Position numbers and translations under genes: made by a program
Origin: an uncultured delta proteobacterium
GTDB lineage: Bacteria > Desulfobacterota > Binatia > UBA9968
NCBI GenBank assembly: GCA_963840855.1
Contig: CAWJBB010000041.1
Location: 96,001-160,000, forward strand
Reading direction: 5' to 3'
Length of the DNA stretch: 64,000 nt
Notes under the pieces: generated by a model
Databases searched by the model: none
Seen by the model: the letters and a program-made list of their open reading frames with translations, nothing else
Told to the model about the DNA's origin: nothing
Part shown: one piece after another, positions 28,343 to 44,707 of the stretch
How the letters are laid out: each line of letters begins with the position of its first letter
Position numbering within the stretch: position 1 is the first letter of the stretch

Positions 28343-29195
28343 TCAAGGGTGGCCGGCAGAAGGGCATGCCGAAGGGGCCAGCTCTTTAAGAAATTTCATG
28401 GTTTGTTCTCTGACGCTTGCCCTTGGCAGGAAATGGCCATGCTCCGGATAGAGCACAAGCTGGTGGCGGGTTCCCGCTGCCTTTAGTTGGTCGCGCAGCA
28501 AAAGGGACTGGTTGACAGGGATCAGCTTGTCCTGCTCGCCGTGCAAGATGAGGGTCGGCGTGCGCCAGCGCGATTCTGCGCCAAGAAAACTCACCAGTTT
28601 CGGATTGACGTCGCCGTTGGGGTTGAGCATCTTGCGCACCCAGAAGCTCGGCGTTTCGCGGTAAAGCCGCGCCAGGTCGTAGGCGCCGGCATAAAGCACC
28701 GCGCCGCTCACGTCTTTGACCTCGTTGATCATCGCCGCCGCGACGGTAGCGCCGCGCGAAACTCCATAAAACATCAGCCGCTGTTGATCGATCCAGGTGA
28801 TTTGCTTTGCGACCGAAAGACCGTCCTTCACGACCTGCCGGGTGGTCTCTTCGATTGAGCCGTCGGCAACTTGCGTCGAGCCGTAACCCGGAAGCGATAT
28901 GGCAACGCTGGCAAAGCAAAGCTCGTTGGCTAAAGCCTGGGCAGTCCCGAGAACCTGTTCAGCGCCCCTACCGGCTGAGGCTATGCCCATGCAATAGAAT
29001 CACCAACGGGAAAGGACCGGCACCGCGCGGTCGGGCGACGTAAGCCTCCACTTTTCCGCCGGCGCTGGGATAAAAGAAACGGGCCGTTTGCTCCCCTTGG
29101 AGGGTTGCCAGTTGCTTATACGGTACGACCCGAACCGCGTTACAGGCAAATAGAAATAACAAGCTGATGGCGACGAGTCCGGATTTTTTGACCAT
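28343..29195 (-). CDS. Alpha/beta hydrolase (S9 peptidase-like) lipoprotein, frameshift near 28980
   Basis: Lipobox LFAC, PLVILLHG, GVSRG nucleophile elbow, LILHGEQD, GH; split across ORFs 28968 and 28343. Confidence 0.75.
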
Positions 29196-29275
29196 GGCTG
29201 ATTCTAACGGCCTCGCGGAAAAAAACAATGCCGTCAAACTGCGCAGGTCCTTAAAACAGCCTGAGAAGAGTGTGG

Positions 29276-29304
29276 TTGAAAAATATATGCCTGTAAGTTT
29301 TAAT
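29276..29304 (+). promoter_or_regulatory. Sigma-70 promoter of the tRNA-Ser locus, copy 1
   Basis: TTGAAA-N17-TTTAAT; homologous to promoters at 31305 and 32490. Confidence 0.65.
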
Positions 29305-29337
29305 GACCGTGTCCCGCGTAAATCACTCAATTTCATT

Positions 29338-29354
29338 ATTGCGGAGGGGTGGGA
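29338..29354 (+). repeat. 5' stub of tRNA-Ser (17-bp direct repeat)
   Basis: ATTGCGGAGGGGTGGGA, identical to the start of the tRNA copies at 31372 and 32557. Confidence 0.75.
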
Positions 29355-29363
29355 AATTCTGAA

Positions 29364-29657
29364 ATGGACAAACTGACAGCGGAAGAGCGCCAGGAAATGT
29401 TACACCTCAAGAGATTTTTATCAAAAAATCCGTACGGCGGTCTTCTATCCGATGAACAGGTCTTGGCAATAATCCGCGATGCGGATGAACTGGTCAAAAT
29501 TCCTAGCTTCGTTGATGAAGGATTGCGCAAGGAAAAAGCACAATCACGGTCGGATCGCGAAAGGCTGAAACATCTATTGACACAAGGGAGGATGACAACT
29601 GAAGAATGGGGAGAGATGGCCGAACTCCTCGATCAGCGTTACCCGAAAGGATCCTAA
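29364..29657 (+). CDS. Hypothetical protein (97 aa)
   Basis: ORF starting just after the tRNA stub; helical charged composition. Confidence 0.45.
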   Translation: MDKLTAEERQEMLHLKRFLSKNPYGGLLSDEQVLAIIRDADELVKIPSFVDEGLRKEKAQSRSDRERLKHLLTQGRMTTEEWGEMAELLDQRYPKGS

Positions 29658-29685
29658 GCAAAGCACAAAGTAGACTGAAATTATG

Positions 29686-31065
29686 CGATCATCGCGTCTT
29701 TGTGTGGGTGATTTCAGGTCATTTTAGAGGGCAGACAGCATGCACGTGAGAATCTTCAGTCGCAGATATTCTTCATCGCGCAGGCCGTACGCGCGTCGTT
29801 GGATGACGCGGATCTTGTTGTTCAGTCCCTCCACGAAGCCAAGTGCGACCTTGTTCTCTGGCTTGCAATAAGCTGCAATCCCATCCCAATGACGATCAAT
29901 CATCTGAGCGAATTTCTCATAAGGTTTGAGCCGCTGCCATTTCAGAGAAGCGCGCCAGTTCTCGAAGAAGCGTCGCGCCCAGCCCTCGTGCTCGTAGCTC
30001 CACAGCTGACCGAAAGACTCCCGAAGCAGATAAGCGGTGTTGAGCCGCTTGTTAGCCGCGAGCAAGGTCTTGAGCGCTTGGCGTCCTTCCAAGGTCAGGT
30101 TCTCCCGGCGCGAAAGCAGGTTGTATTTCTGCCCTTTGATGTAGCGGCGCTGTTTACCAGTGAGCCGGGCATACTCGCTCTTTCGGACCTTGTCCAGCGC
30201 TTCACCCAGATGACGCAGCACATGGAACTTATCGAACAAAATGGCTGCTTGAGGGGCGTGGGCTTGAGTGGCGTTGCGAAATGGCTTCCACATGTCCATC
30301 ACCGCCAAGCGAATACGGCGCCGCTTGCTCGCTCCAAGCCAGTTATAAAATTCACCCATACTGGCCTCCGAGCGGTCCTGGCCACCAAACCAGATCGGCC
30401 GGCGACGAATGAGATCGCTGACCACGATGCGGTAGGTGTGCCGCTTTCTGATCGAGATTTCATCAATGCCAATCACCTTCGGTCCCGGCCTGCCCGCCTT
30501 TGCGAGCTGCGCAGTCATGTATTGTTTGTCGAGCTCCTTGACCGCGTGCCAGTCGAGCTTGAGCTCCTCGGCGATATCCTTGATCGTGGTAGAGCGACAG
30601 CGCCGCCCCACGTAATAGGCAAAGCGCTTGGTGTAAAACGGGTTGTCGGCCAAAAACTCCAACCGCTCGCGCTTCACTTTGCCGCAACTGCGGCACTCGA
30701 CACGGCGCACTTCGAAATTGAGATAAATGCGCATGTCGCCGCACGACAGATCGCGAACCTGCCGCCTGGTGCGGTCGTAGACAGCTCCAGTGAAGGGTGG
30801 CGCACAAACCGCAAAGCGTTTTTTTGAGCGTCGGGTAAGTGTAATGACACGCGCCTTGGGGTCACCGAAGACACCACGAAGACGAGTCCGGGGACAACAA
30901 CCCGGGAAACGATATGCGTCCAGCAAACCTTTGCGTTTGGTAGAAGTGGCCATCGAGAAATCATGCCAACTTTTCGCTCCACTTCAAACTCTGCAAAGCC
31001 AGTACTGGTGCGACTTTCAACCATGCTCAGCATCAAAAAACGCCCATACTCTTATGCGAAGATCG
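29686..31065 (-). mobile_element. ISL3-family insertion sequence (1380 bp)
   Basis: Imperfect IRs cgatcatcgcgtctttgtgtgggtg / cgatcttcgcataagagtatgggcg; 8-bp DR AAATTATG at 29678-29685 and 31066-31073. Confidence 0.88.
29724..30953 (-). CDS. ISL3-family transposase
   Basis: IGIDE, MDMWKPF, DKFH, EGLNNKIRVIQRRAYG. Confidence 0.92.
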   Translation of the reverse strand: MATSTKRKGLLDAYRFPGCCPRTRLRGVFGDPKARVITLTRRSKKRFAVCAPPFTGAVYDRTRRQVRDLSCGDMRIYLNFEVRRVECRSCGKVKRERLEFLADNPFYTKRFAYYVGRRCRSTTIKDIAEELKLDWHAVKELDKQYMTAQLAKAGRPGPKVIGIDEISIRKRHTYRIVVSDLIRRRPIWFGGQDRSEASMGEFYNWLGASKRRRIRLAVMDMWKPFRNATQAHAPQAAILFDKFHVLRHLGEALDKVRKSEYARLTGKQRRYIKGQKYNLLSRRENLTLEGRQALKTLLAANKRLNTAYLLRESFGQLWSYEHEGWARRFFENWRASLKWQRLKPYEKFAQMIDRHWDGIAAYCKPENKVALGFVEGLNNKIRVIQRRAYGLRDEEYLRLKILTCMLSAL

Positions 31066-31070
31066 AAATT

Positions 31071-31271
31071 ATGAAGCACCATTATAAAAAGTACGAGATA
31101 GAAACTTCAGCAAGGCAGCAGTCGAATAGCTGGTGGACAGGGAAAGCGGACATCAAGCCTTCGGTTGCTCGTGTCCGTGCCGTTCAAGTTATTGGGGACT
31201 TTATGAGCCAAATTAGTGCCGAGACTGCGGCGTTCGATCTAGCCAAGCACCAGATTGATAATGCACATTAA
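31071..31271 (+). CDS. Small hypothetical protein (66 aa); ATG lies in the ISL3 target duplication
   Basis: MKHHYKKYEIE...AETAAFDLAKHQID. Confidence 0.5.
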   Translation: MKHHYKKYEIETSARQQSNSWWTGKADIKPSVARVRAVQVIGDFMSQISAETAAFDLAKHQIDNAH

Positions 31272-31304
31272 GGCGAGCGCGAAGGTGGTGCGTGTGATTG
31301 CTGG

Positions 31305-31333
31305 TTGAAAAAGTTCCCGCCGTAAGTTTTAAT
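31305..31333 (+). promoter_or_regulatory. tRNA-Ser promoter, copy 2
   Basis: TTGAAA-N17-TTTAAT. Confidence 0.65.
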
Positions 31334-31371
31334 GCTCCTGTCCTGCCGAAGTCGTTGAAATCAAACATTGC

Positions 31372-31459
31372 GGAGGGGTGGGAGAGCGGTTTAATCCACC
31401 GGTCTTGAAAACCGGCGTCCATTCGTGGACCGCGAGTTCAAATCTCGCCCACCTCGCCA
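31372..31459 (+). pseudogene. Full-length tRNA-Ser(TGA) copy with disrupted acceptor stem
   Basis: Identical to 32557-32644 except the 3' acceptor strand CCACCTC instead of CCCCTCC (two mismatches plus one G-U against GGAGGGG). Confidence 0.8.
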
Positions 31460-31574
31460 ACACACAAAGGTCAGGAAAAAATAAATCCGTCGAGGATCTA
31501 GGCAAAGAATGAGCCGGACAGGTTCGTACCGATGCCGACCACCCAACCACTGCCTTCGGCTTGAAGGTCAAGTT

Positions 31575-31631
31575 GTTTAACGCCAAGCTCGGCGTGTGTG
31601 GCGAGCGTCGGGCTCGAGCGCAAAGTTAAGC
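31575..31631 (-). other. attC-like integron recombination site (57 bp)
   Basis: Minus strand GCTTAAC-TTTGC-GCTCGAGC ... GCCGAGC-TTGGC-GTTAAAC; antitoxin stop TAA lies inside RYYYAAC. Confidence 0.6.
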
Positions 31632-31811
31632 GGCTGACTGGTCAGTAGGTTCGGCGGTTTTCTCTGTCTTAATCAGCCGGTCCTGGTGCTGTTTCTGGAT
31701 CTCTATGTAGTAGGCCACTAACCGTGCAGGATCGTGATCAAAGCGCGCAGAGATGCGATGGCGCACTTCCCGGATCTCGTCGATTACTGGATCACTCTGA
31801 CTCTGTTTCAT
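31626..31811 (-). CDS. Small putative antitoxin partner of the PIN toxin
   Basis: DPVIDEIREVRHRIS.RFDHD motif typical of genes downstream of this PIN subfamily; overlaps toxin end. Confidence 0.65.
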   Translation of the reverse strand: MKQSQSDPVIDEIREVRHRISARFDHDPARLVAYYIEIQKQHQDRLIKTEKTAEPTDQSAA

Positions 31812-32286
31812 CACTACCTCCAAGCAGTTCCAAGGGCGTCACCAGCGCCGGCACAAAGAGACCAAGCAACACGTTCACGCGGTGAATGTGGCCGAATTTG
31901 TTCGCATTTGCCAAGTGCCGGCAATTCCATGTCACCAGAAAGTCGCATTTGTGATAGGACGCCAGCGCCAAGTGCAGCGCATCACCAGCGGGATTGGCAG
32001 GCATCACCCTGTGCCGGATATATGCCTGTACGATCTCGGCGATGGCCGGCTCAATGGGCAAGAGCGGCAGGTCACGAACGAGGGCAAGTCGCTGCGCACT
32101 GCGCTCCGGTATACCGCCGGTTAGCTCGTCCAGCACGGCTGGGCTGGTAACCAGCTCATAGCGGTCGGGCGCGCCTTCCCACCACTGCCGCGTCCACTCC
32201 CGGCGCGCCACGATATCAGGAGCGGACCGCGCTTCGTGGTAAAAGCTAGGGATCGTCGTCTCAACGTAAACGCGAGGTTTAGGCAT
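31792..32286 (-). CDS. PIN-domain (VapC-like) toxin
   Basis: VYVETTIPSF, S..VLDE, DALHLALA, DFLVTWNCRHLAN. Confidence 0.85.
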   Translation of the reverse strand: MPKPRVYVETTIPSFYHEARSAPDIVARREWTRQWWEGAPDRYELVTSPAVLDELTGGIPERSAQRLALVRDLPLLPIEPAIAEIVQAYIRHRVMPANPAGDALHLALASYHKCDFLVTWNCRHLANANKFGHIHRVNVLLGLFVPALVTPLELLGGSDETESE

Positions 32287-32489
32287 TGTTGATAAGATAC
32301 CGCACTTAATCTGCAAGGAACAGGGCTAATAAGCCGGAAAAATCATAGAGCGCGCATAGATGAATAATCGGAGGTGTCGCTGTGAGAGGCTGGCCGGTTA
32401 TCCACTTTGGGGCAGATGCTTTCGCTCATGAGGAAACCTTATTCGTCACACCCAAAATGCGCGCGCAAGATTGAGATTCCGGTTATTGG

Positions 32490-32518
32490 TTGTAAAAGTT
32501 TCCGCCGTAAGTTTTAAT
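32490..32518 (+). promoter_or_regulatory. tRNA-Ser promoter, copy 3
   Basis: TTGTAA-N17-TTTAAT directly upstream of the intact tRNA. Confidence 0.65.
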
Positions 32519-32556
32519 ACTCGTGTCCTGCCGAAGTTGTTGAAATCAAACATTGC

Positions 32557-32644
32557 GGAGGGGTGGGAGAGCGGTTTAATCCACCGGTCTTGAAAACCGG
32601 CGTCCATTCGTGGACCGCGAGTTCAAATCTCGCCCCCTCCGCCA
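32557..32644 (+). tRNA. tRNA-Ser(TGA), intact
   Basis: Acceptor GGAGGGG/CCCCTCC, anticodon arm CCGGT-CTTGAAA-ACCGG, long variable arm GTCCA-TTCG-TGGAC, T arm GCGAG-TTCAAAT-CTCGC, G73, encoded CCA. Confidence 0.95.
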
Positions 32645-32870
32645 ATTTTCAATACTGTCGCCCGTTGAATGCTACTTCCGGCAGAAGCGGTTTTCCGGAG
32701 AAGCCTTTCCGTTTGCATTCTGCGTAGCTCGCCTGAAACCGAGTTTCGGGTACCCAGCACCCGCGGCTTATCTTAATGCGATCTTCTCCTCAGTTTCCTC
32801 GCATGCCTCCCGTAGCGGTTTTCCTGTTACGAATGTAAAGAAACAAGACTTGACCCTCGGCGGCCATTTT
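32645..32870 (+). repeat. Conserved 226-bp left arm, copy 1
   Basis: Near-identical to 34528-34753 (about 8 substitutions by eye). Confidence 0.9.
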
Positions 32871-33042
32871 TAGCGATAACTCCCTGTTTTTTTGGCTTTT
32901 GCGTTTTTTCACTCCCTGAATTATTTTTCATGAATTGCAGAAAAGCGGTCTTTTTGCAGGCGAATTGATAAATGAATTGATAAATGGGACGGGTCAACGT
33001 GTCCACGAGCGCCGTCTAACCATCTCTAGAGAGAGGGCAAAC

Positions 33043-33669
33043 ATGCTTAAACAGTTTTGGCAATGGCTCAAGGGAAACCTAGCCTATGACGTCACCAAGT
33101 ACGTACTGGAGTCGAAACTAATCATGTCGGCGATTAGTGCGGGCGTCGCTGGATTTATTGTTGTCTGGAATAACTATGGTCCTTTGGTTCTTTTTTTTGC
33201 CATTCTTCTTGCCGCTAGCCTGGCAGCTAACCTCGCTAGTGATATTAGCGCCTGGCGAAAGGCCATAGTGCGTGGCAAGCGTCACTATTTAGTTCCGGCG
33301 ATACTGCTCGGAATCGGCTTGATAGGTTTGTGGTATTGGGGCGGCGGTTATGAAGTCACTCTTGACCAGGCAATGCCTAATCATTCGGCGCTTTTCAGAC
33401 AGTGGAATGCCATACCGCTGACGGAGGTCGACCAGAGAGTCTTCCATAAGACCACGGTCGTTCTTGACGGTAAGCGTTTCAAGAAAGATTGCGTCTTCGA
33501 CAATGTGCAGTTTGTTTTCAACGGTACCGCGCCATACAAGGTCGGTGGCTGTAGGATCATGGGTAAAAACTCCATCTCGACAGGGAATCCCTCGTTGGAG
33601 CAATTTGCAATTTTGTTTTTGCAATTACGTTTTTACAACCCAGGGGTTTCGCGCGAATTACTCAAGTAG
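33043..33669 (+). CDS. Hypothetical membrane protein (about 3 TM plus soluble C-terminal domain)
   Basis: Low-GC ORF with GAGGG RBS; hydrophobic segments. Confidence 0.55.
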   Translation: MLKQFWQWLKGNLAYDVTKYVLESKLIMSAISAGVAGFIVVWNNYGPLVLFFAILLAASLAANLASDISAWRKAIVRGKRHYLVPAILLGIGLIGLWYWGGGYEVTLDQAMPNHSALFRQWNAIPLTEVDQRVFHKTTVVLDGKRFKKDCVFDNVQFVFNGTAPYKVGGCRIMGKNSISTGNPSLEQFAILFLQLRFYNPGVSRELLK

Positions 33670-34180
33670 GGTGTTTCATCGAAACAAACGCCACGCCACG
33701 GAACGAAGCGCCGATAAGCAGCAACCGCACTTCGCGCAAGTAGGCTGGCTTTTCAGGAATTTTTCTTTGGAAATTCTGTTCATATCGTGGGTGGATTGGT
33801 GCATCTATATCGCCAGGCAAGGCGACCGGTCAAGCGAAAAAGTGGATGGTGCTCGGCGGGTCATTCGGACCTGCTGCTGGCTGAGGGCTAGTATGCTTCC
33901 TGACTTCCGGTCTATATCGTCCAGCGGGCGAACGGTCAAGGGACTCCTGCGCTTTCGGCCTCTTCCATGGTAAAATTATAGAATCTTTGCTGCGGGCGGA
34001 GGAGGTTGGGGATGAGTAACAACGTGGAAATAATTGGGTTGCCGCTTCAGTCGATTCTGGTGATGGGCGAGGCGATACGATGAGCAGCATCAAGGCAACC
34101 TGCAAAGCAGCCACCAGCATCGAGCTGGCAGAACTTCAGCCGCTCCAAGGAAACCTGAAGGAATTGTCCCTCGCGGCGAC

Positions 34181-34297
34181 GTGAACCTTTGCCCCGACAT
34201 CGACCGACTGTGCTATGAGTGTCTCGTCAAAGCATTCAGCGCCCGACTTATCGTGCATCCAGCCGAGCCGTCAGGCGAGCCTACGTGTTGCCGTTAG
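34181..34297 (+). CDS. Cys-rich micro-ORF, copy a (38 aa)
   Basis: VNLCPDIDRLCYECLVKAFSARLIVHPAEPSGEPTCCR; many synonymous differences versus copies at 41473 and 42986. Confidence 0.45.
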   Translation: MNLCPDIDRLCYECLVKAFSARLIVHPAEPSGEPTCCR

Positions 34298-34299
34298 CT

Positions 34300-34467
34300 C
34301 AAAAGCTGCTTGGTTTCGGCAGTACAACCGTAGTACAAAACGCGTGTTGGAATGAGCCTATCTGTGGCGGAATGGGGAAACATGAAAGCGAAGGGAAAGC
34401 GCAAGAAAAACAGACGTTTAGAGCTTAAATCGTTATTTCTCATGCGCTTACGATACCCCTAGATAAG
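34300..34467 (+). repeat. Conserved right arm, copy 1, with AGTACAA x2 at 11-bp period
   Basis: Homologous to 44485-44648; AGTACAA at 34321 and 34332. Confidence 0.75.
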
Positions 34468-34527
34468 CGGTCTTGAAAACCGGCGTCCATTCGTGGACCG
34501 CGAGTTCAAATCTCGCCCCCTCCGCCA
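34468..34527 (+). repeat. tRNA-Ser 3' fragment (anticodon arm to CCA), att-like
   Basis: Identical to 32585-32644. Confidence 0.92.
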
Positions 34528-34753
34528 ATTTTCAATACTGTCACCCGTTCAATGCTACATCCGGCAGAAGCGGTTTTCCGGCGAAGCCTTTCCGTTTGCA
34601 TTCTGCGTAGCTCGCCTGAAACCGAGTTTCGGGTACCCAGCAGCCGCGGCTTATCTTAATGCGATCTTCTCCTCAGTTTCCTAGCATGCCTCCCGTAGTG
34701 GTTTTCCTGTTACGAATGTAAAGAAACAGGACTTGACCCTCGGCGGCCATTTT
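34528..34753 (+). repeat. Conserved 226-bp left arm, copy 2
   Basis: See 32645-32870. Confidence 0.9.
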
Positions 34754-34968
34754 GTCGGAAGCGCGACCTTTCGTTACCGCATGGGCGTCGACTCCGGCAA
34801 CTACCAGGTGACATCGAGCGTTGTCATCAATTCAGGCCCGTCTATCGTCGATGTATTGAACTACGGGCGGTTCACCGACTTTTCCTTCAGCGCTGCTAAC
34901 TCCCAAGTGCCGACGTACTATATATTTGGAGAACCGATACGGTAATTAACCGACAAACATGAAAATGT

Positions 34969-35388
34969 CTAGCTGACCAATTCTAAGAAGTGTGGCCCTT
35001 CTTTGAACCGAGGATTGTTCCTAATCATATCGCGAGCTACGTCAAAAAAATCGCTCGGCCCGTAAACGAACCTATGCGAAAAGGCGACCTGGAGTGAATT
35101 GAGATTAAGCACGTTGTCAGGATTCATATTTATCGGTGTTCCATCTGTCATCCCAGCAATGAACTGTTCAATTAGAGCATCTCGTTGACCGAGCATTGTT
35201 TTAACTTCTGGACGAACTCCCCGCAATTCGACGTAGCGCTCATAGGCTTTAGTGAACTCTTCTTCATGACTTGGGCAAAGAATTCCAAGAGAGAACTTAG
35301 CACTAAGCGGCATGTAAATTTCGATACCTTCAACACCCAAACCAAGATTTCCGGCGAGCCCAAACGTTTTTTTGTTGGTGCCGAACAT
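34969..35388 (-). pseudogene. C-terminal fragment resembling DUF4238 proteins
   Basis: G.EIYMPLS.KFSL and V..LN.LQ..FS.RFVY; no N-terminal half present. Confidence 0.5.
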
Positions 35389-35491
35389 TATGGTGGGAAA
35401 TGTTCATCGGTTCCCTGTGGATCAGGTGATTACTTGGCTGCAAGGTGCGTGCGGTTAGGCACTTCTAAGGTAAGTTCCCGGCAGCTCGTGA

Positions 35492-36184
35492 TTACTGGAG
35501 TGCGCGGTTTGAGGTTCTCGTAGTGCCACTCTTACCGGGAAAGTCTTCAAACAATGTCTTGATCATTGTAGGTAACACAACCGACACCTGCTCGCTTGAA
35601 CCGCTGCTAACGACTTTCCCTTCATAAAGTTTCTTCATCTTGCTCTCAGCGAGCGCGTTCTTATCAAGCAGTTCAAACGTCAAAAACCGCGTGTAATGAG
35701 TTTGGGAAGTGACGCCGCTACCGACAACGCCGTACGTAGGCGTATAGGTGGTGCTTCCAGAATAGGTGCCAAAAGTCCCGTAGTTTTGAACAGTTCCGTA
35801 GGTTGTGCTTGAGGATACGCCGGTTTGGCCAAATATCGGATAGGACGAAACGACCTGCTTACCCGTATCAATCCCATAGGAAAAGACAACGATCAAGTCA
35901 GCCTCTGCTGATGGGGTCTCCTTGAAACCTTTTGCATCTAGTTCTTGCCTGACAACATTTTCGTAGGATCGATGTTCAAGACTATGCTCCTGTTCTTTCA
36001 ACGGAATCATTGCATAAGTGGTTCCAGCAAAGCCCTGTGGAAGATCATGAAAGACCACAACTTGAGAGCGTACCATCGTACAACCCGATTGCACTACTAT
36101 CAGAAATATCGCTACTAACAGAGTCCTCGCAGTGGCACTCTGCTGGCCGGAGCAGTCCAGCGTGATTCCGGGTAGTTTTCTCAT
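35492..36184 (-). CDS. DUF4136-like lipoprotein
   Basis: Lipobox QSGC, SLEHRSYE..VRQEL..KGF, ADLIV.FSY, YEGKVVSSG, MIKTLFEDFPG. Confidence 0.7.
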   Translation of the reverse strand: MRKLPGITLDCSGQQSATARTLLVAIFLIVVQSGCTMVRSQVVVFHDLPQGFAGTTYAMIPLKEQEHSLEHRSYENVVRQELDAKGFKETPSAEADLIVVFSYGIDTGKQVVSSYPIFGQTGVSSSTTYGTVQNYGTFGTYSGSTTYTPTYGVVGSGVTSQTHYTRFLTFELLDKNALAESKMKKLYEGKVVSSGSSEQVSVVLPTMIKTLFEDFPGKSGTTRTSNRALQ

Positions 36185-36396
36185 AGTCTCCTCTAGGGTG
36201 AAAACTGGAAACCTTCTATCACTACACCGTAGCGGCGGTCAATTGCATAATGAATAAGAGACAGAGGGGTGCGACCGCGATGTCATCTGCAACCAGCCAC
36301 GCAGTAGCACCCACAACCCGCCTGCGACAGTGAGAATTCCGACAGTAATGATTTCTTTATAGTCCAGCCATGTCTCCATTTGTGGGACTGATGCTT

Positions 36397-36797
36397 TCAC
36401 CTAACCATATCCACCGCGCGTGCTACGAGGCGCGTTTTGTCTTCGCCGCCTTTCAGACATTCCTTGTTCCAGATTCGAGCGAATCCAGGGTTGTTTTCAC
36501 TCGTGCTCATTTTGTCCTTGGTGATGACGGCGTTACCGCGCGTCATGCCTCCAAAGCCGTTTTGACTCCGATACTGATAGCAAACGACTTTCTCTTTAGG
36601 CATGATGTTGACGCTTTCAAGTTTGAAACTGTCAGGGTTTCGCATTGCATCGCGCAGGGTGAGCGCACCTGCTGTAGCCCATTGGAAGTCCTCATTTTCC
36701 TTGATCTGAGCCTGGTTTTAGGCTGTTGCCGCTCTGAGCAATTTCCGACGATCACGAGCAACACCACGACGCCGAATAAAAACGCCAATAACTTCAT
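36397..36797 (-). CDS. Small secreted hypothetical protein, frameshift near 36710
   Basis: Signal peptide in ORF 36543-36797 continues into MRNPDSF...VCYQYRSQNGFGG in ORF 36397-36645. Confidence 0.5.
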
Positions 36798-37033
36798 AAT
36801 TCACCGCTTTCTAGTGGGAGAGGGACTCTAGGCTTATTGTGCGGTGGCTTTGCCCTCCAATTCTCCGACCCTACCACAGCGCCAAAAAATTCCTCCGCGA
36901 GCCTGGCGAGGTCTCGCAGCGGGGTTCCAGCGGCGATCTCTTTTTGAATTCGGCGGCCCGCTTGTGGATCACCCTTAGAGTAGGCCGCGTAGTCCAACGC
37001 GGCGATTTGCTCGCTGTTGTAAGTTTTCAACAT
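36794..37033 (-). CDS. Hypothetical protein (79 aa)
   Basis: GGAG RBS; stop overlaps start of the next gene. Confidence 0.4.
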   Translation of the reverse strand: MLKTYNSEQIAALDYAAYSKGDPQAGRRIQKEIAAGTPLRDLARLAEEFFGAVVGSENWRAKPPHNKPRVPLPLESGEL

Positions 37034-37184
37034 CGGTTTTACTCCTCCTCGTCGGCTTCGTCGGCTTCAAGTTTAGCTAGTTTCTGTCGCGAAACTCGCA
37101 ACTCACTGCTAAATCAAGAAGTTTTTACTTCTTAGCTTCATTTTTTACTTGACAAGCATGTATGCCTTATGGCACACATAGAAC

Positions 37185-37565
37185 ATGTCGCGCAAAACTG
37201 AAACTGCCGCCGATGTCGAGCAATGGTTCCAAAAACAAGCCGCAGGGCTGTGGCCGGCTGCGCTGGGGTCGTTGAGCCTGCGGCGAAGTCCCTGCGTGCG
37301 CGAACACTGCGCAGCCTGCCGCTCGGGCGAACAGCACCCCAGTCATATCCTATACGTGCGCATTAAAGGACGCCGCTTTGCGGTTTACATCCCAGAGCCA
37401 TTGGTCCCAGAGATACGGCTTAGCCTCGACAACGGCCGTGTTCTTCAGGAGCTGCTGCATCAAACCGCTCTTCGATATACCAAAGCCCTCAAGCATCAAA
37501 GGACCACAAAGATTCAAAAGATCAACCATGACAAGAGTCGTCGAACCGCAAGTCAGCTTCGCTGA
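37185..37565 (+). CDS. IS accessory ORF (Zn-ribbon, DUF6788-like)
   Basis: GSLSLRRSPC...C.AC..GEQH; C-terminus extended by a 1-nt difference versus copy 2. Confidence 0.7.
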   Translation: MSRKTETAADVEQWFQKQAAGLWPAALGSLSLRRSPCVREHCAACRSGEQHPSHILYVRIKGRRFAVYIPEPLVPEIRLSLDNGRVLQELLHQTALRYTKALKHQRTTKIQKINHDKSRRTASQLR

Positions 37566-38946
37566 TCTGGAATTTCTCACTCAGGGGATCGATCTCGACC
37601 CGATTCTCAAGAGGATGTCCGACTTCCTCGATTATCGGCCACAGATCATCGAGCCGGTGCGCCAAGATCTTCAGCTGGGTCTGAAAAAGCCTGCCACCGG
37701 CCGCACAGCCATGACCCCGGCGCAGGTGCTTCGGTCGCTGATCCTGATGCGAGTGAAGAACTGGGACTATCGGGAACTCAGCGAACGAATCGCTGACGGA
37801 TACACGTTGCGCCGATTCACGGGTTTTTACAGCCGGCGCGTACCCAAGCATGACGCTTTCAATCGGGCCTTTAATAAACTGCACCCCAAAACCATACAAG
37901 CCATCAATGACTTGGTCCTTAAAGCTGCCGTCGATCTGGGACTGGAGGACGGCAAGAGACTGCGCGTCGATACGACGGTCACCGAAACCGATATCCATCA
38001 TCCAACCGATAATACTTTGCTCTGGGATGTAGTGCGCGTCCTGACGCGGCTCATCGATCGTCTCGGAAAACTTCTTCCCAATGGGATCGATAACTTTACT
38101 AACCGCACACGCTGTGCACGCCGTCGCATGCAAGAGATCCAACGCATGACAGCGAGGCAACGCCACACCCAGCAAAAGGGTAAATATCGCCAACTCATCG
38201 GGACCACCGAGCAGGTCGTCCAAAATGCCCGAGGGGTGCTCGAAAAGACCAAAGATCAATGCGCTGTTGACCTGCTGGACGACATTATCATTAGCGAGCT
38301 TCGAAGAAAGATCGATCACTACTGCCAACTCGGCACCCGCGTCATCGATCAGAGCAGCCGGCGCGTGCTCAAGGGAGAGCAGGTTCCAACCGAGGAGAAA
38401 ATCTACTCGATCTTTGAACCCCACAGTGATCTGATCAAGCGGGGGAAAGTACAAAAGCCGATGGAGTTTGGCCACAAGATCTTTCTCGCTGAAAGTGCCC
38501 GCGGTTTGATCACCCAGTACCGCGTGCTTGAAGGTAATCCCTCCGATCACATCCACGTCACGCCGTCGCTGAAGCGTCATCAGGAGACTTTCGGTTTGGC
38601 TCCCGATTGGTACACTGGTGACCGCGGCTTTTTCAGCGCTGCGAACATCAAAGCATGCCAGGATAGCACTGTGAAGCTCGTCTGCATTCCGCAGTGCGGT
38701 GGCAAAAGGACCTCCCAACGCGAAGCGCTCGAAAAGAGCTCAGAGTTCAAGAAAGGACAACGCTTCCGCGCAGGCATTGAGGGCCGCATATCCGTGCTCT
38801 TTCGCGGCCGCGGCATGAAGCGCTGTTTGGCCGAGGGACCTGAGCGCTTTGAGATGTTGGTCGGCGCCGCTGTGCTTACCAACAACCTCATGAACATCGC
38901 TCACCTGTTAAACCAAAAGAACAAACGGCTACGACGAGCGGCGTAG
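37528..38946 (+). CDS. DDE transposase (IS5-like/ISNCY)
   Basis: RVDTTVTETDIHHPTD, EFGHK, GDRGF, RFRAGIEGRIS. Confidence 0.9.
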   Translation: MTRVVEPQVSFADLEFLTQGIDLDPILKRMSDFLDYRPQIIEPVRQDLQLGLKKPATGRTAMTPAQVLRSLILMRVKNWDYRELSERIADGYTLRRFTGFYSRRVPKHDAFNRAFNKLHPKTIQAINDLVLKAAVDLGLEDGKRLRVDTTVTETDIHHPTDNTLLWDVVRVLTRLIDRLGKLLPNGIDNFTNRTRCARRRMQEIQRMTARQRHTQQKGKYRQLIGTTEQVVQNARGVLEKTKDQCAVDLLDDIIISELRRKIDHYCQLGTRVIDQSSRRVLKGEQVPTEEKIYSIFEPHSDLIKRGKVQKPMEFGHKIFLAESARGLITQYRVLEGNPSDHIHVTPSLKRHQETFGLAPDWYTGDRGFFSAANIKACQDSTVKLVCIPQCGGKRTSQREALEKSSEFKKGQRFRAGIEGRISVLFRGRGMKRCLAEGPERFEMLVGAAVLTNNLMNIAHLLNQKNKRLRRAA

Positions 38947-39248
38947 CCACTGTCGCTCTCAAACGTTCATTCGACGCTCCCTGGGCGTAGTCTTTTCTGC
39001 CATCACTGCGCGGTCCATCGAACACCCCACACGACTCTTTGCTGTCCACTTTCAGCTCAAAATGATAGAACTATGTCAGAGAAAAAACTTGGCCCATGTC
39101 GCACCCGTAAGATTTTTGCGAGTTTCGCGACAGAAACTAGCTAGTTTCTGTCGCGAAACTCGCAACTCACTGCTAAATCAAGAATTTTTTACTTCTTAGT
39201 TTCATTTTTTACTTGACAAGCATGTATGCCTTATGGCACACATAGAAC

Positions 39249-39596
39249 ATGTCGCGCAAAACTGAAACTGCCGCCGATGTCGAGCAATGGTTCCAAAAAC
39301 AAGCCGCAGGGCTGTGGCCGGCTGCGCTGGGGTCGTTGAGCCTGCGGCGAAGTCCCTGCGTGCGCGAACACTGCGCAGCCTGCCGTTCGGGCGAACAGCA
39401 CCCCAGTCATATCCTATACGTGCGCATTAAAGGACGCCGCTTTGCGATTTACATCCCAGAGCCATTGGTCCCAGAGATACGGCTTAGCCTCGACAACGGC
39501 CGTGTTCTTCAGGAGCTGCTGCATCAAACCGCTCTTCGATATACCAAAGCCCTCAAGCATCAAAGGACCACAAAGATTCAAAAGATCAAACCATGA
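39249..39596 (+). CDS. IS accessory ORF (DUF6788-like)
   Basis: ATGA overlap with the transposase. Confidence 0.7.
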   Translation: MSRKTETAADVEQWFQKQAAGLWPAALGSLSLRRSPCVREHCAACRSGEQHPSHILYVRIKGRRFAIYIPEPLVPEIRLSLDNGRVLQELLHQTALRYTKALKHQRTTKIQKIKP

Positions 39597-41011
39597 CAAG
39601 AGTCGTCGAGCCGCAAGTCAGCTTCGCTGATCTGGAATTTCTCACTCAGGGGATCGATCTCGACCCGATTCTCAAGAGGATGTCCGACTTCCTCGATTAT
39701 CGGCCACAGATCATCGAGCCGGTGCGCCAAGATCTTCAGCGGGGTCTGAAAAAGCCTGCCACCGGCCGCACAGCCATGACCCCGGCGCAGGTGCTTCGGT
39801 CGCTGATCCTGATGCGAGTGAAGAACTGGGACTATCGGGAACTCAGCGAACGAATCGCTGACGGATACACGCTGCGCCGATTCACGGGTTTTTACAGCCG
39901 GCGCGTACCCAAGCATGACGCTTTCAATCGGGCCTTTAATAAACTTCACCCCAAAACCATACAAGCCATCAATGACTTGGTCCTTAAAGCTGCCGTCGAT
40001 CTGGGACTGGAGGACGGCAAGAGACTGCGCGTCGATACGACGGTCACCGAAACCGATATCCATCATCCAACCGATAATACTTTGCTCTGGGATATAGTGC
40101 GCGTCCTGACGCGGCTCATCGATCGTCTCGGAAAACTTCTTCCCAATGGGATCGATAACTTTACTAACCGCACACGCTGTGCACGGCGTCGCATGCAAGA
40201 GATCCAACGCATGACAGCGAGGCAACGCCACACCCAGCAAAAGGGTAAATATCGCCAACTCATCGGGACCACCGAGCAGGTCGTCCAAAATGCCCGAGGG
40301 GTGCTCGAAAAGACCAAAGATCAATGCGCTGTTGACCTGATGGACGACATTATCATTAACGAGCTTCGAAGAAAGATCGATCACTACTGCCAACTCGGCA
40401 CCCGCGTCATCGATCAGAGCAGCCGACGCGTGCTCAAGGGAGAGCAGGTTCCAACCGAGGAGAAAATCTACTCGATCTTTGAACCCCACAGTGATCTGAT
40501 CAAGCGGGGGAAAGTACAAAAACCGATGGAGTTCGGCCACAAGATCTTTCTCGCTGAAAGTGCCCGCGGTTTGATCACCCAGTACCGCGTGCTTGAAGGT
40601 AATCCCTCCGATCACATCCACGTCACACCGTCGCTGAAGCGTCATCAGGAGACTTTCGGTTTGGCTCCCGATTGGTACAGTGGTGACCGCGGCTTTTTCA
40701 GCGCTGAGAACATCAAAGCATGCCAGGATAGCACTGTGAAGCTCGTCTGCATTCCGCAGTGCGGTGGCAAAAGAACCTCCCAACGCGAAGCGCTCGAAAA
40801 GAGCTCAGAGTTCAAGAAAGGACAACGCTTCCGCGCAGGCATTGAGGGCCGCATATCCGTGCTCTTTCGCGGCCGCGGCATGAAGCGCTGTCTGGCCGAG
40901 GGACCTGAGCGCTTTGAGGTGTTGGTCGGCGCCGCTGTGCTTACCAACAACCTCATGAACATCGCTCACCTGTTAAACCAAAAGAACAAACGGCTACGAC
41001 GAGCGGCGTAG
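39593..41011 (+). CDS. DDE transposase (IS5-like/ISNCY)
   Basis: As copy 1 with a few substitutions. Confidence 0.9.
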   Translation: MTRVVEPQVSFADLEFLTQGIDLDPILKRMSDFLDYRPQIIEPVRQDLQRGLKKPATGRTAMTPAQVLRSLILMRVKNWDYRELSERIADGYTLRRFTGFYSRRVPKHDAFNRAFNKLHPKTIQAINDLVLKAAVDLGLEDGKRLRVDTTVTETDIHHPTDNTLLWDIVRVLTRLIDRLGKLLPNGIDNFTNRTRCARRRMQEIQRMTARQRHTQQKGKYRQLIGTTEQVVQNARGVLEKTKDQCAVDLMDDIIINELRRKIDHYCQLGTRVIDQSSRRVLKGEQVPTEEKIYSIFEPHSDLIKRGKVQKPMEFGHKIFLAESARGLITQYRVLEGNPSDHIHVTPSLKRHQETFGLAPDWYSGDRGFFSAENIKACQDSTVKLVCIPQCGGKRTSQREALEKSSEFKKGQRFRAGIEGRISVLFRGRGMKRCLAEGPERFEVLVGAAVLTNNLMNIAHLLNQKNKRLRRAA

Positions 41012-41472
41012 CCACTGTCGCTCTCAAACGTTCATTCGACGCTCCCTGGGCGTAGTCTTTTCTGCCATCACTGCGCGGTCCATCGAACACCCCACACGAC
41101 TCTTTGCTGTCCACTTTCAGCTCAAAATGATACAACTATGTCAGAGAAAAAACTTGACCCATGTCGCACCCGTAAGATTTTTTGCGAGTTTCGCGACAGA
41201 AACTAGCTAGGGCGTGCGCCATCCACGTGTTGCTTTCCGCGTCCAGCGCTTCTGCGATGGTCCCATTTTAAATTTTTGCTTTCTGAGCGTAGTTGAGCAA
41301 TTCAGGTGCCAGTTTTTTGCGCAACGGGTTTTTACAGGCAAATATGAAAACTGCGGGGCTACCACTATCGCCGCGCGGCTATAGCAAACTGGAAGGTCGT
41401 CGTAATCAACGCAGGAATGAGAAAGGGTTTTTCGTATCGCCGCACGGCGATAGCATTGTCCCTCGCGGCGAC

Positions 41473-41580
41473 GTGAACCTCTGCCCCGACATTGAGCGTC
41501 TCTGCCACCGGTGCCTGGTGAAAGCATTCAGCAGCCGCGTGGTCGTGCGTCCGCCCGTGCCGGACGACGAGCCGACGTGA
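41473..41580 (+). CDS. Cys-rich micro-ORF, copy b (may start further upstream)
   Basis: VNLCPDIERLCHRCLVKAFSSRVVVRPPVPDDEPT. Confidence 0.45.
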   Translation: MNLCPDIERLCHRCLVKAFSSRVVVRPPVPDDEPT

Positions 41581-41830
41581 AAGTTCGAGCCGATTATCCA
41601 CATCTTTTCGACACGAGTCCGAAACCTGCCGGTCCCCTCGAAGGTATGATGAAGGCGGCGTAATTATTATTGACTTCTGAATCTGACGGCTTGGCGCGGG
41701 TGTGTCTGGCTCTGACGAAAACTAACTCTGAAGCCCCATGGCGGTGTCCCAGCCACATGAAAACTATCGGTTCAGTTGCAGCGAGTTCGGGTCCGAACCG
41801 GTCATTAGGCAGGCCGATGGCTGATGTAAT

Positions 41831-42238
41831 CTATAAGCCCGGAAGAAACAATAAAACGACAATGAGCACGCTCTCCCCAACGAGTAACAAAAGCGCTGCT
41901 TTCTCTCTGCAGCGAACATTGCGGTGCTTACGGCTCTCAGTTTCGATATTCGCTTTTCTCTGCTCTTCAGTCAGTTCAGGCCCAGAAAACATCCTGCCAA
42001 TGTCGAGGTAGCGTTCCTTCGTGACCCAGAAATTCCATATCATGAGCAAAAGCGATACAAGGCAACAAGCGACAAGAAGCAAGGAAATCGGCCTGTTTAC
42101 GGCTGGAGAGAGCAACAACAAAATCGAAAACGCGGTTAACATGATGCCGTTAACAGTCAGGAGAGCGTTCCAAAGTTGGAAGTTGGATTCGCCAGCCTTG
42201 TTTACGAAATGCTGCAGAACCGGACTGAAGTTCGCCAT
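41831..42238 (-). CDS. Hypothetical 3-TM membrane protein
   Basis: Two N-terminal and one C-terminal hydrophobic helices. Confidence 0.55.
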   Translation of the reverse strand: MANFSPVLQHFVNKAGESNFQLWNALLTVNGIMLTAFSILLLLSPAVNRPISLLLVACCLVSLLLMIWNFWVTKERYLDIGRMFSGPELTEEQRKANIETESRKHRNVRCREKAALLLLVGESVLIVVLLFLPGL

Positions 42239-42284
42239 ACTAACTTGGGTAACGCCTCAACGGTTCGGTCAGTCATGCGGCGGC

Positions 42285-42683
42285 CTATTTCCGCCCTACG
42301 CATGGAAAAGCGTTCCCCAGGCTTTCGAGAGCGACATGGAAGAAATCCGCGTGAAGACGTTGCGGATTTTTCTCCGCATAGGCCACATAGATAGAGATAA
42401 GTTGTGTTAGTTTGCTGTTTGATGGGGCACAGACCCCATGAATTGGGCCAGTGTCGTCGGCTTGCACGATTACCTTCTGAATAACACCGAACGCTCCCCA
42501 ACAAATTCCAGTTTCGTAATTCGTTGGGAACCTCACATAATCACCCGTAACTTCGGCCTTCGCTATCAGTCTACATGCTGAGAGCAGCTCTTCCGCAGAA
42601 AAGGCAAGAGCGGATTTGGAACCGCTTGCGAAAAAAAAGACGAGCAAGAACAGTCGAAGCGCTGTTGCCACTCGCATTTCCAT
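42285..42683 (-). CDS. Rap1a/Tai-like immunity protein
   Basis: Signal peptide, ELLSAC, C.G....I, VCAP, YAEKNPQRLH, AL...FPC pattern. Confidence 0.7.
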   Translation of the reverse strand: MEMRVATALRLFLLVFFFASGSKSALAFSAEELLSACRLIAKAEVTGDYVRFPTNYETGICWGAFGVIQKVIVQADDTGPIHGVCAPSNSKLTQLISIYVAYAEKNPQRLHADFFHVALESLGNAFPCVGRK

Positions 42684-42985
42684 GATCTTTTTTTGGGCCA
42701 AACCCAGTGAGTATTACTGACCAGTAATATTACCCGATCCCAAGAATCAAGGTTCAGGCAAGATTTAACTTTTTAGTCAACGAGTTGTCAATCATTTTTC
42801 GTTCGCGTCCATTCGGGTGCGTTTGACGGCACCGGAGGTCCTCGTCGTGGGTTTCTGCGAACCGACGCGCCAGGGGGTCGATCTTGTTTCCCAGGCCATG
42901 CTGCCTCGTCCTTCGTCCCCGCGACAACACTTTTTCCATTGACCTCCGCCCTGAGGAAACCTGAAGAATTGTCCCTCGCGGCGAC

Positions 42986-43102
42986 GTGAACCTTTGCCCC
43001 GATGTCGAGCGTCTGTGCCATGAGTGCCTCGTCAAAGCGTTCAGCGCCAGCTTGGTCGTGCTTCCGCCTGAGCCGGACGACGCGCCGACGTGCAGCTGTT
43101 GA
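42986..43102 (+). CDS. Cys-rich micro-ORF, copy c (38 aa)
   Basis: VNLCPDVERLCHECLVKAFSASLVVLPPEPDDAPTCSC. Confidence 0.45.
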   Translation: MNLCPDVERLCHECLVKAFSASLVVLPPEPDDAPTCSC

Positions 43103-43668
43103 ATCTCGGTTTAAAAAGGCACTCTCCTCGTAAAATCACCAAAACTGCCGTCATAACGTGGTTATAAATGGCGTTGGAGCGCGGAAAAAAAATTCTTGGT
43201 GCGCGCGCAACAACGGACCCAGGATCGCAACTGCCCTTTGGGCCGGACATCAGCCCCGAGAAAACGAGAAGTCTTTACCGGGCAAAATCAAAAAACGGTG
43301 GACGATGTTCGGGCCGATAAGGTGGGCGAGTCGCGATGGGGCTGTCGCAGGCGCAACTGGGACGCCTGCTGAAGTATGCGGGGCCTAACACCATCTCAAG
43401 AAAAGAGCGCGGTGAGCACTCGGTTCAGCATGTCGAGGCGATTGCAGTGATGTACCTGGCGACGCTCGCGCTGTGCAGAGAGGAGGTAAAAATGGAGTGG
43501 CCTTGAGGAACGCCGTGCGTCTTGAGCGGCGTCACACCACGCATATTCCGCTGCTCACCTGGCGCACGACGCAATGACAACGCAAACTCAACGGCGCGGC
43601 TCTTGATGATTTCGTGGTCGTACCCTTCATTTTTTCCCGTTCGTTCACGTCTTTCTCCTTTTCTTTTG

Positions 43669-44100: not shown

Positions 44101-44175
44101 CTCGCCTCCCTCTGCTTCGCCTCTCGCTTTCACCCATAGCGCATCAATCAGTTTTTTGTCTGTCCTCGGTTTCGG

Positions 44176-44379: not shown

Positions 44380-44484
44380 TGTTTCTCCCCTGTGTTTGTA
44401 GGGGATTTGCGTGTGTGAATCTCTAGCCATAATACACCCTTTATAGTATAGCGCTCCGAGAAAAAAACCTCTTTGGTCCTATCC

Positions 44485-44648: not shown

Positions 44649-44707
44649 CGGTCTTGAAAACCGGCGTCCATTCGTGGACCGCGAGTTCAAATCTCGTCCC
44701 CTCCGCC
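44649..44707 (+). repeat. tRNA-Ser 3' fragment, outer att-like boundary
   Basis: One mismatch to 32585-32643; ends CCG rather than CCA. Confidence 0.9.

Follow-up and report, generated by a model that had tools for sequence, protein, structure and literature searches.

Organization of the tRNA-Ser(UGA) locus

We analyzed a 64,000-nt stretch of DNA, hereafter the window, from contig CAWJBB010000041.1 of an uncultured delta proteobacterium (Binatia), in which a tRNA-Ser(UGA) gene is accompanied on both sides by copies and fragments of itself. The assembly to which it belongs is a 7.1-Mb metagenome-assembled genome with 94% completeness and 8.27% contamination. For the domain content, the 31 open reading frames (ORFs) in 24000-49000 were scanned by Pfam. 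The tRNA-Ser(UGA) served as the query against 41 relatives and then against the full set of 123 genomes from the order; two genomes, G046 and G067, are unpublished and contribute to the fragment counts over the 123 genomes and to the list of PIN homologues.

The locus comprises three copies of a promoter-like block joined to tRNA sequence (copies 1 to 3), units A and B between them, units C and D beyond them, and one protein-coding gene on either flank (Table 1). The displaced pieces, copy 1 and copy 2, lie upstream of copy 3 and are co-oriented with it on the plus strand. Two 3' halves of the tRNA (positions 29-88), at 34468-34527 and 44649-44707, lie downstream of the intact tRNA in the same orientation. 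None of the 31 ORFs matched the tyrosine integrase family PF00589, whereas the elements found in the relatives do encode a tyrosine integrase; the units of the window are therefore remnants rather than elements. We read 29273-44707 as a two-sided integration hotspot around a single working tRNA-Ser(UGA) at 32557-32644, and we assign to this reading a probability of roughly 0.7. An earlier reading of the same DNA from its letters (the sequence-only reading) had proposed the upstream half of this picture; it had missed the two 3' halves downstream, the ISL3-family insertion sequence (IS) inside unit A, and the absence of an integrase from 24000-49000.

Table 1. Features of the locus and of related loci. 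Mirror-type denotes an element that carries the 5' rather than the 3' part of the tRNA; positions are those of the window unless a locus is named.
Feature	Position	Strand	Description
Left flank, alpha/beta-hydrolase	28343..29195	-	Pfam Peptidase_S9/DLH; frameshifted in this assembly
Copy 1	29273..29354	+	Type-I site, TTGAAA 29276 .. TTTAAT 29304; 38-nt leader; 12-nt tRNA stub 29343-29354
Unit A	29355-31301		ORF1, XRE tail, ISL3 insertion, ORF2
ORF1	29364..29657	+	97 aa; cargo gene of a mirror-type element; ATG 9 nt past the stub
XRE-type regulator, 3' remnant	29658..29685	+	Second deletion joint, immediately past the ORF1 stop
ISL3-family IS	29686..31064	-	Transposase 29724-30953; Pfam DDE_Tnp_ISL3 1.5e-68
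ORF2	31071..31271	+	66 aa; second cargo gene of the same element family
Copy 2	31302..31460	+	Type-II site 31305-31333; leader; full-length tRNA-Ser(UGA) 31372-31459 (ARAGORN)
Unit B	31460-32486		PIN toxin and small partner on the minus strand
Unit B cargo	31626..32286	-	PIN-domain toxin 31792-32286 (Pfam PIN 1.4e-07)
Putative antitoxin ORF	31626-31823	-	Small upstream ORF overlapping the PIN gene
Copy 3	32487..32645	+	Type-II site 32490-32518; leader; intact tRNA-Ser(UGA) 32557-32644
Unit C	32645..34527	+	Ends in a classical 3' half, tRNA 29-88 at 34468-34527
Unit D	34528..44707	+	Ends in a decayed 3' half 44649-44707; DUF4136, two tandem IS, Rap1a immunity gene; no integrase
Right flank, beta-CASP/metallo-beta-lactamase RNase-type gene	44990..45862	+	Pfam; short here
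Hairpin repeat sites in relatives	L043:4704-4760; L044:1713-1775, 2085-2150; L045:1125-1190; L046:838-900

Three promoter-like repeats and their tRNAs

The pattern TTGWAA-N17-TTTAAT matched the window exactly three times, at 29276-29304, 31305-31333, and 32490-32518, all on the plus strand; the chance expectation was 0.01 (100 shuffles), and no shuffle reached three matches. The sites lie within a family of 82-nt direct repeats (29273-29354, 31302-31383, and 32487-32568), the block start is identical in every copy, (TG)GTTGAAAA, and the end of the second hexamer is separated from the tRNA 5' end, GGAGGGG, by 38 nt each time. Copy 1 shares 71-73% identity with copies 2 and 3. Between copies 2 and 3, the identity is 95% over 159 nt and 100% in a 103-nt core, from -24 to tRNA position 79.

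The copies differ in the tRNA that follows. Copy 1 ends in a stub of 12 exact tRNA letters, GGAGGGGTGGGA (13 of 14 positions match). In copy 2, the 3' strand of the acceptor stem reads CCACCTC, against CCCCTCC in copy 3, and Infernal scored copy 2 at 44.9 bits with two non-canonical acceptor pairs and copy 3, which has a full acceptor stem, at 58.1 bits. The copy 2 tRNA is probably disabled. Copy 3 is the sole intact tRNA-Ser(UGA) of the assembly, copy 2 being the only other full copy, and we infer that copy 3 is the functional gene. These results agree with the sequence-only reading on the three sites at one distance from the tRNA starts, on the broken acceptor stem of the second tRNA beside an intact third, and closely enough on the first stub, which it had put at 13 nt.

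An alignment of ten copies resolved two leader types, in which the hexamers and GTAAGTTTTAAT were kept and the spacer was variable. Type I adjoins the hydrolase gene in the window and in the metagenome contigs L043 and L044, and is also present in L046. Type II comprises window copies 2 and 3, L045, and both copies of G002. The repeat start GTTGAAAA falls on the same base in 9 of the 9 g1-type copies aligned, and the DNA upstream of the type-II copies is unrelated. The two types fit incoming units that brought their own promoter, with the leftmost copy as the resident; copy 1 is thus read as the resident (host) promoter, now stranded. The term promoter is used here for what this conservation suggests.

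A further motif, G(C/T)AAGT-N2-3-TTGA(A/T)(A/T)T, was observed about 12-27 nt before the tRNA-Ser(UGA) start across genera, in native as well as element-borne copies (L009, L010, L014, L015, L016, L031, L036, and window 31345-31361 and 32530-32546). Within the genus of the window, it is present twice, the second time as GTAAGTTTTAAT in the proposed -10 region. Its role may be that of the true core promoter or of a site for the integrase.

Mirror-type elements in relatives

Over the 123 genomes, we found 15 fragments restricted to the 5' part of the tRNA (positions 1 to 39-44) in 14 genomes, or 12 fragments in 12 genomes when G046 and G067 are left out, and nine fragments restricted to the 3' part in seven genomes, the own genome included. 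The counts omit G117, a degenerate full copy (1-47 + 56-88), and G106:C128 (13-87). In G016, G018, G024, G027, G070, and G104, both pieces are on one contig, and 3.3 to 16 kb separate the 5' half from the intact tRNA downstream of it. In each of these six genomes, a PF00589 integrase, of which G027 keeps a fragment, is encoded on the strand of the intact tRNA and stops 2-114 nt short of the tRNA start. The anticodon loop (CTTGAAA) is the endpoint of every displaced half and the place from which the 3' halves start. Their outer flank is serS in G016, G018, G071, and G104, and serS also adjoins the unoccupied tRNAs of G008, G011, G012, and G017.

The genome G002, from the same genus as the window, harbors two copies with a common stretch of 108 nt that opens at GTTGAAAAAG (-35) and closes in the anticodon loop; beyond it, the DNA is unrelated on either side. 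Taken together, these layouts support the existence in this lineage of a mirror-image mode, in which the incoming element supplies the tRNA 5' part along with the region before it and pushes out the resident counterpart. The sequence-only reading had inferred this mode from the window, and the relatives bear it out through the 5' halves upstream of an intact tRNA and the integrase directly upstream of that tRNA; its further proposal, that the element carries the promoter, is matched by the G002 repeat, which starts exactly at the -35 hexamer. The classical layout was found at the same tRNA in G019, where the integrase faces the intact gene and a 3' half lies downstream; in G065, an integrase fragment precedes the tRNA and a 3' half follows it.

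Two further relatives are of note for their arrangement. In G013, the contigs C665 and C688 (L034 and L035) end exactly at the anticodon loop, one as a 5' half and the other as a 3' half, as expected if occupied and empty sites coexist in the population. In G037 (L038, C1), full tRNA-Ser(UGA) copies at 3561-3653 and 17264-17356, with about 95 nt of homologous upstream sequence, enclose a 13.6-kb island with type I restriction-modification, DUF1828/1829, and an AbiEii-like AAA protein; the eight ORFs scanned between the copies contain no integrase.

Unit A and the joint of the tRNA stub

ORF1 matched no Pfam or NCBIfam family. It has eight homologues with 85-99% identity and four metagenome loci (L043-L046), and no relative of ORF1 was found in the contigs of the genome set. 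ORF2 is found in L043-L046 with 93-97% DNA identity and shows a weak match, under the cut-off, to the NCBIfam domain CV_2116. In L043 and L044, the order is hydrolase, type I promoter, stub, ORF1, and ORF2, and both contigs diverge from the window right after ORF2; the order copy 1 - ORF1 - ORF2 is thereby backed by two independent metagenome contigs. In these contigs, 29685 is continuous with 31065 and no ISL3 element is present. The insertion of the ISL3 element, which is bordered in the window by the target duplication GAAATTATG at 29677-29685 and 31065-31073, is proven by these empty sites.

An intact left end is preserved in L045. It consists of a type-II promoter with tRNA 1-42, a hairpin with a U-run, CATTGTCCACATTGTCC, an XRE gene, ORF2, and ORF1, and a C-terminal fragment of a tyrosine recombinase lies to the right of ORF1. 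From this anatomy, the unit A genes of the window belong to a mirror-type element. The left-end motifs of L045 and G002 (CATTGTCCACATTGTCC and AAATTGTTCCCGAGGTGTT, respectively) are absent from the window.

The stub joint reads GGAGGGGTGGGA/AATTCTGAAATG, that is, GGGA/AATTCTGAAATG, and GGGA is common to the L046 sequence just upstream of ORF1, gcgaGGGAAATTCTGAAATG. The 28 nt past the ORF1 stop are the tail of the XRE gene: window 29656-29685 corresponds to L045 513-542, at the end of the helix-turn-helix gene L045:350-535. In L046, the joint is different, with a stub of 7-9 nt fused to the middle of the XRE gene, and ORF1 lies behind the XRE gene and ORF2 in L045 and L046. The GGGA microhomology, the XRE remnant, and the differing joint of L046 identify the 12-nt stub as the endpoint of an illegitimate, secondary deletion and not as a crossover product, which is what the sequence-only reading had taken it for. 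A crossover in the D-loop, comparable to the Klebsiella arg2 islands, was also considered for the stub and is ruled out by the same joint, remnant, and differing L046 joint. The order ORF1 - XRE tail - ORF2 would need at least one further deletion, most simply within a tandem pair of related elements.

Among the RNA data, 23 runs were listed, none with half of the sampled words, and four contig sets were compared (X6, X10, X12, and X1). One metatranscriptome contig corresponds to 29406-29548 within ORF1, and others lie over the IS and ORF2; these contigs give no start or strand, and library DNA is a possible source.

Predicted terminators and hairpin repeats

We folded the 80-95 nt past the crossover. 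A hairpin with a U-run was predicted 35-45 nt past the crossover in L045, L030, L031, L032, and L036 (z from -2.5 to -5.2); it was weaker in G002 (L026) and absent in G027 (L029). Folding gave nothing comparable after the window stub or copy 2. The intact elements would thus shield their cargo from the stranded host promoter by a predicted terminator, which is the opposite of an integron Pc promoter. In the window, the old promoter, its 38-nt leader, and the purine-rich stub precede ORF1 at a ribosome-binding distance. This fusion of the promoter-like site to ORF1 is an accident of deletion.

In the metagenome relatives, small ORFs that share one orientation are followed by a hairpin repeat of about 55 nt (AATTAAGCGGCCGGG..CCGGCCATGAAAGG), whose inner stem shows compensatory changes. 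The motif AWTAAGCGG in L043-L046 is followed by the hairpin (GGCCGGG..CCGGCC) at five of seven sites, and the order of ORF1 and ORF2 is permuted between these contigs. The repeat in the relatives seems to lack the attC end consensus. In the window, there was no match with fewer than three mismatches and a single match with three, at 55292, outside the feature, with 1.11 expected. Searched as AATTAAGCGGSCCGGG, the repeat was found 0 times in the own genome at up to one mismatch and once each in G002 and G003 at one mismatch, which does not exceed the reversed control; a genome-wide repetitive extragenic palindrome is ruled out by those counts.

Downstream units and flanking genes

The two downstream units open with the same 226 nt past the tRNA 3' end (97% identity), and 32585-32870 as a whole is repeated at 34468-34753 with 97% identity. 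Their right ends are also alike (34311-34377 against 44493-44559, 87%). A third 3' half was found on contig C44 of the own genome (G000:C44:14615-14957, equal to L039 7615-7957), and that end shows 75% identity over 351 nt. The ends of unit C, unit D, and C44 suggest a group of related classical elements whose ends are alike over long stretches. For unit C, the three ORFs scanned gave no Pfam match and no integrase. An assembly-wide search returned an integrase homologue on contig C27 (36% identity to the G016 integrase), which was set aside, with no tRNA within its 4-kb locus.

Unit D additionally contains two tandem IS copies (window 37074-41210) with a DUF772/DDE_Tnp_1 transposase, 99% identical and spaced by 2064-2065 nt. 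They have terminal inverted repeats of 28-29 nt and a perfect 25+25 nt palindrome at their joint, 39116-39165. The Rap1a-type immunity gene of unit D (42285-42701, minus strand; Pfam 1.4e-09) is an orphan.

The hydrolase on the left flank is syntenic in G002 (L026 6751-7702) and in the metagenome contigs L043 and L044. The tblastn alignment splits the window gene into two frames near residue 84-88, and the gene is in one frame in L043, L044, and G002; the split hydrolase is either a pseudogene or an assembly error. The beta-CASP gene on the right flank is the co-oriented downstream neighbor of tRNA-Ser(UGA) in G070 (L062:409-1812) and G065 (L064:1054-2505). In window 44990-46294 (plus strand), it encodes 290 aa, against 467-483 aa in G070 and G065, and is followed by a 142-aa ORF in another frame, so that the gene may be frameshifted.

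Proposed history and alternative explanations

We propose that an element family with a tyrosine integrase recombines in the anticodon loop and carries the 5' side of its target. The attP would contain the element's own upstream region, the leader, and tRNA positions 1 to about 40, and every integration would rebuild the tRNA with its front half from the element and its back half from the host, displacing the earlier promoter and 5' half upstream. Copies 1 and 2 would be such displaced pieces and copy 3 the gene in use, and the DNA between the copies would be the leftovers of elements that lost all integrases and att arms and are no longer self-mobile. Unit A would have undergone at least two illegitimate deletions and later been struck by the ISL3 element. 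One deletion removed what remained of the displaced 5' half, the predicted terminator, and part of the element, and in doing so brought the ribosome-binding region of ORF1 directly behind the former host promoter with its 12 nt of tRNA. Unit B is a PIN toxin-antitoxin pair. Downstream, classical elements carrying the 3' half would have used the same anticodon-loop site, leaving two 3' halves behind. The order of these events, as well as the origin of unit B and of the full-length copy 2, is what we infer from the arrangement.

Several observations weigh against this history. The window has no integrase (Pfam, 31 ORFs, 24000-49000) and neither arm-type motifs nor a terminator hairpin of the element family, so the tie to site-specific elements runs through cargo homology and repeat structure only. 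Neither displaced repeat of the window ends in the anticodon loop: copy 1 stops at tRNA position 12, and copy 2 is full-length, whereas a simple anticodon-loop mirror integration predicts a half. The 3' tip variant of copy 2 is present in one of 90 family genomes, its own, and in none of the 89 others. The path from copy 2 through unit B to copy 3 crosses the 103-nt identical core and is known from this metagenome-assembled genome alone; no contig of the four sets (X6, X10, X12, and X1) bridges copy 2 to copy 3, with L043 and L044 diverging after ORF2. A consensus sigma-70 scan of 29100-32900 flagged none of the three sites, because TTTAAT has no A at position 2 of the -10 hexamer, where that base is usually essential. 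Finally, the two full tRNA copies of G037, with their homologous upstream regions, flank an integrase-less type I restriction island, which suggests that full-copy duplication can exist without a visible integrase.

For unit B, another origin is possible, although we hold it only tentatively: an element or circle may have used a whole promoter-bearing tRNA (5' part plus a faulty 3' part) as its attachment site, or the crossover may have been at the 3' tip. Copy 2 can then be read as the resident promoter and body with a foreign 3' tip, CCACCTCGCCA, and copy 3 as a different promoter variant with an intact tip; there are published examples of phages that have a complete tRNA with its promoter next to the att site. 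However, the tip occurs in no relative among the 90 family genomes, and there is neither an integrase nor an independent contig for the arrangement. The PIN homologues elsewhere also speak against it: they were found at many loci in 26 of the 123 genomes, and the places listed are all on contigs without a tRNA-Ser match (the loci were not themselves scanned for tRNA), which gives no clue to the origin of unit B. Separately, the likeness of the copy 2 trailer AACACACAAAGG to the native trailer of G017 was dismissed as chance, with no further extension. A plain tandem duplication of promoter and tRNA by unequal homologous recombination, followed by decay and involving no site-specific element, is unlikely even if confined to copies 2 and 3. 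It would account for the lack of an integrase in 24000-49000, for a full-length copy 2 whose 103-nt core is identical to that of copy 3, and for the two full copies around the integrase-less island of G037. Yet the DNA after copies 1, 2, and 3 is mutually unrelated, with no repeat family joining 29355-31301, 31460-32486, and 32645 onward; the repeat starts at GTTGAAAA in 9 of 9 g1-type copies, with unrelated DNA upstream of the type-II copies; the unit A genes sit behind an anticodon-loop half in L045; and integrase-bearing mirror elements are common in the order. Tandem duplication and decay in relatives, along with silent stranded promoters, had been named with the sequence-only reading as the finding that would overturn it; the decay is there, in the integrase-less remnants, and the duplication is contradicted by the unrelated spacers. 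An assembly artefact, in which variants of a single tRNA locus from different strains were joined into a tandem array that does not exist, is very unlikely. The contamination of 8.27%, an identical core of 103 nt that could mislead an assembler, and a path between copy 2, unit B, and copy 3 without independent support all leave room for it; but both outer joints of unit B lie in unique sequence, copy 1 - ORF1 - ORF2 is confirmed by two independent metagenome contigs, and like arrays occur in complete genomes of the order, such as G027 and G037 (one or two contigs each).

An integron has a fixed Pc promoter at one end of an array of small co-oriented gene cassettes, and the sequence-only reading had compared the stranded promoter with Pc. 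We consider it highly improbable that the locus is a platform of this kind, with the stranded tRNA promoter serving inserted, shuffled promoterless cassettes. The intact elements, which place a terminator 35-45 nt past the displaced half, between the stranded promoter and the cargo, run counter to such a design, and so do the lack of an integron integrase and an attI, the lack of any tyrosine recombinase in 24000-49000, and the absence of the hairpin repeat from the window and the own genome. The joints resemble microhomology deletions that left an XRE tail, unlike cassette boundaries, and the copy 2 promoter faces a toxin-antitoxin pair on the opposite strand. The resemblance that remains is that ORF1 starts 9 nt past the stub on the same strand, that the small ORFs of L043-L046 are co-oriented and have a hairpin repeat with compensatory changes at five of seven motif sites, that ORF1 and ORF2 change order between strains, and that neither hexamer of the stranded promoter is damaged in the window or in L043, L044, and L046. 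It is likewise quite unlikely that this soil/sediment lineage has taken over the mirror-stranded promoter for cargo expression and built an integron-like platform on a tRNA promoter. If so, Shine-Dalgarno-like purine runs would recombine with the G-rich start of the tRNA, GGAGGGGTGGGA, and the resulting deletions would place small genes at a ribosome-binding distance behind the promoter; there, cassette-like co-oriented small ORFs would each be trailed by hairpin repeats with compensatory changes, in a strain-variable order. The two-sided hotspot, with the ORF1 fusion as a by-product of deletion, is the reading that we retain.

Implications

Textbooks and most island-finding practice assume that tRNA-targeting elements carry the 3' part of the tRNA, so that the host promoter stays in charge. 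In this order, the reverse is no less common at one tRNA, with 5' fragments in 14 and 3' fragments in 7 of the 123 genomes. By the mirror design, the integrase gene runs into the carried 5' half, a predicted terminator guards the cargo from the stranded host promoter, and, as a consequence, the expression of an essential tRNA would be handed to the element. The same anticodon-loop site appears usable from both sides, which would let islands grow in both directions, and the stranded promoters could supply material for gene fusions at a later stage. A lesson for annotation is that island borders are marked on the upstream side of a tRNA by its 5' fragments and by faulty full copies, just as they are marked on the downstream side by 3' fragments.

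Comparison with known systems

In HTVC019P-type pelagiphages of SAR11, the host tRNA is described as completed by a phage-borne 5' end, with the attP just downstream of int (10.1101/410191). In these phages, a tyrosine integrase recombines inside the host tRNA gene (10.1101/410191), an arrangement also seen in G016, G018, G024, G070, and G104. They differ in being podoviruses of an alphaproteobacterium that use tRNA-Cys, -Leu, and -Arg, and section 11 of that report mentions no carried promoter or attL-side terminator (10.1101/410191). The elements studied here belong to another order, where they occupy tRNA-Ser(UGA) as small islands or prophages, and the window retains only remnants. The Klebsiella arg2A-VII islands, which have clade I.d integrases, are reported to differ from the remaining islands ("in contrast to all other") by inserting on the upstream side of their target tRNA, and a 5'-proximal sublocation in the D-loop is named for the arg2 islands (10.1101/2020.11.02.365908). 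The present lineage differs in its anticodon-loop crossover, and the window stub ends at the D-arm by deletion.

Classical islands, as treated by Islander, have a split target, a gene restored by the island, a displaced fragment at the far end, and tandem arrays (PMC4383910), a description that units C and D fit. In the upstream units of the window, the displaced piece is instead a 5' part with a promoter, and the integrases are missing. The configuration filter of Islander is described as also allowing a 5' fragment upstream (PMC4383910). The tRNA-dependent lysogeny of mycobacteriophages, in which a complete tRNA with a tested promoter is brought in and the host copy is non-functional (PMC10865867), resembles the faulty copy 2 beside copy 3. 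As described, that system has an att core of about 10 bp and a phage tRNA encoded at another place in the genome, and it does not rebuild the host gene (PMC10865867), whereas here the working gene would be a hybrid or a carried copy at the junction itself.

The element SXT is comparable in another way, as it integrates in prfC and supplies a new 5' end. Similarly, dusA-specific islands are described as integrating in the 5' end of a protein gene and supplying a new 5' end (PMC4482086). Like the mirror-type elements, dusA islands and SXT carry the 5' part of the target and, by implication, a promoter, but their targets are protein genes and not a tRNA. In comparison with integrons, there is no IntI, no attI, and no evident attC consensus, the fusion to ORF1 arose by deletion, and the intact relatives insulate the cargo with a predicted terminator. 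The tycheposons of Prochlorococcus are a further parallel, since degenerate elements, fragmented integrases, and partial tRNAs are modelled as piling up beside a tRNA and thereby forming an island (10.1101/2020.12.28.424599). In that account, growth is described on one side (10.1101/2020.12.28.424599), whereas here both sides of the tRNA have grown.

Integration that restores the 5' part of the target is thus rare but already known in kind, from the pelagiphages and the Klebsiella arg2 islands, and the mirror mode is not new. For four additional points, we found no paper that states them, in a text search blind to phrases containing 5'. What the present lineage appears to add is the frequency of the mirror mode in one order at one tRNA, a discrete promoter block that begins at the -35 hexamer in one genus, a predicted attL-side terminator, and the use of the same site from both sides.

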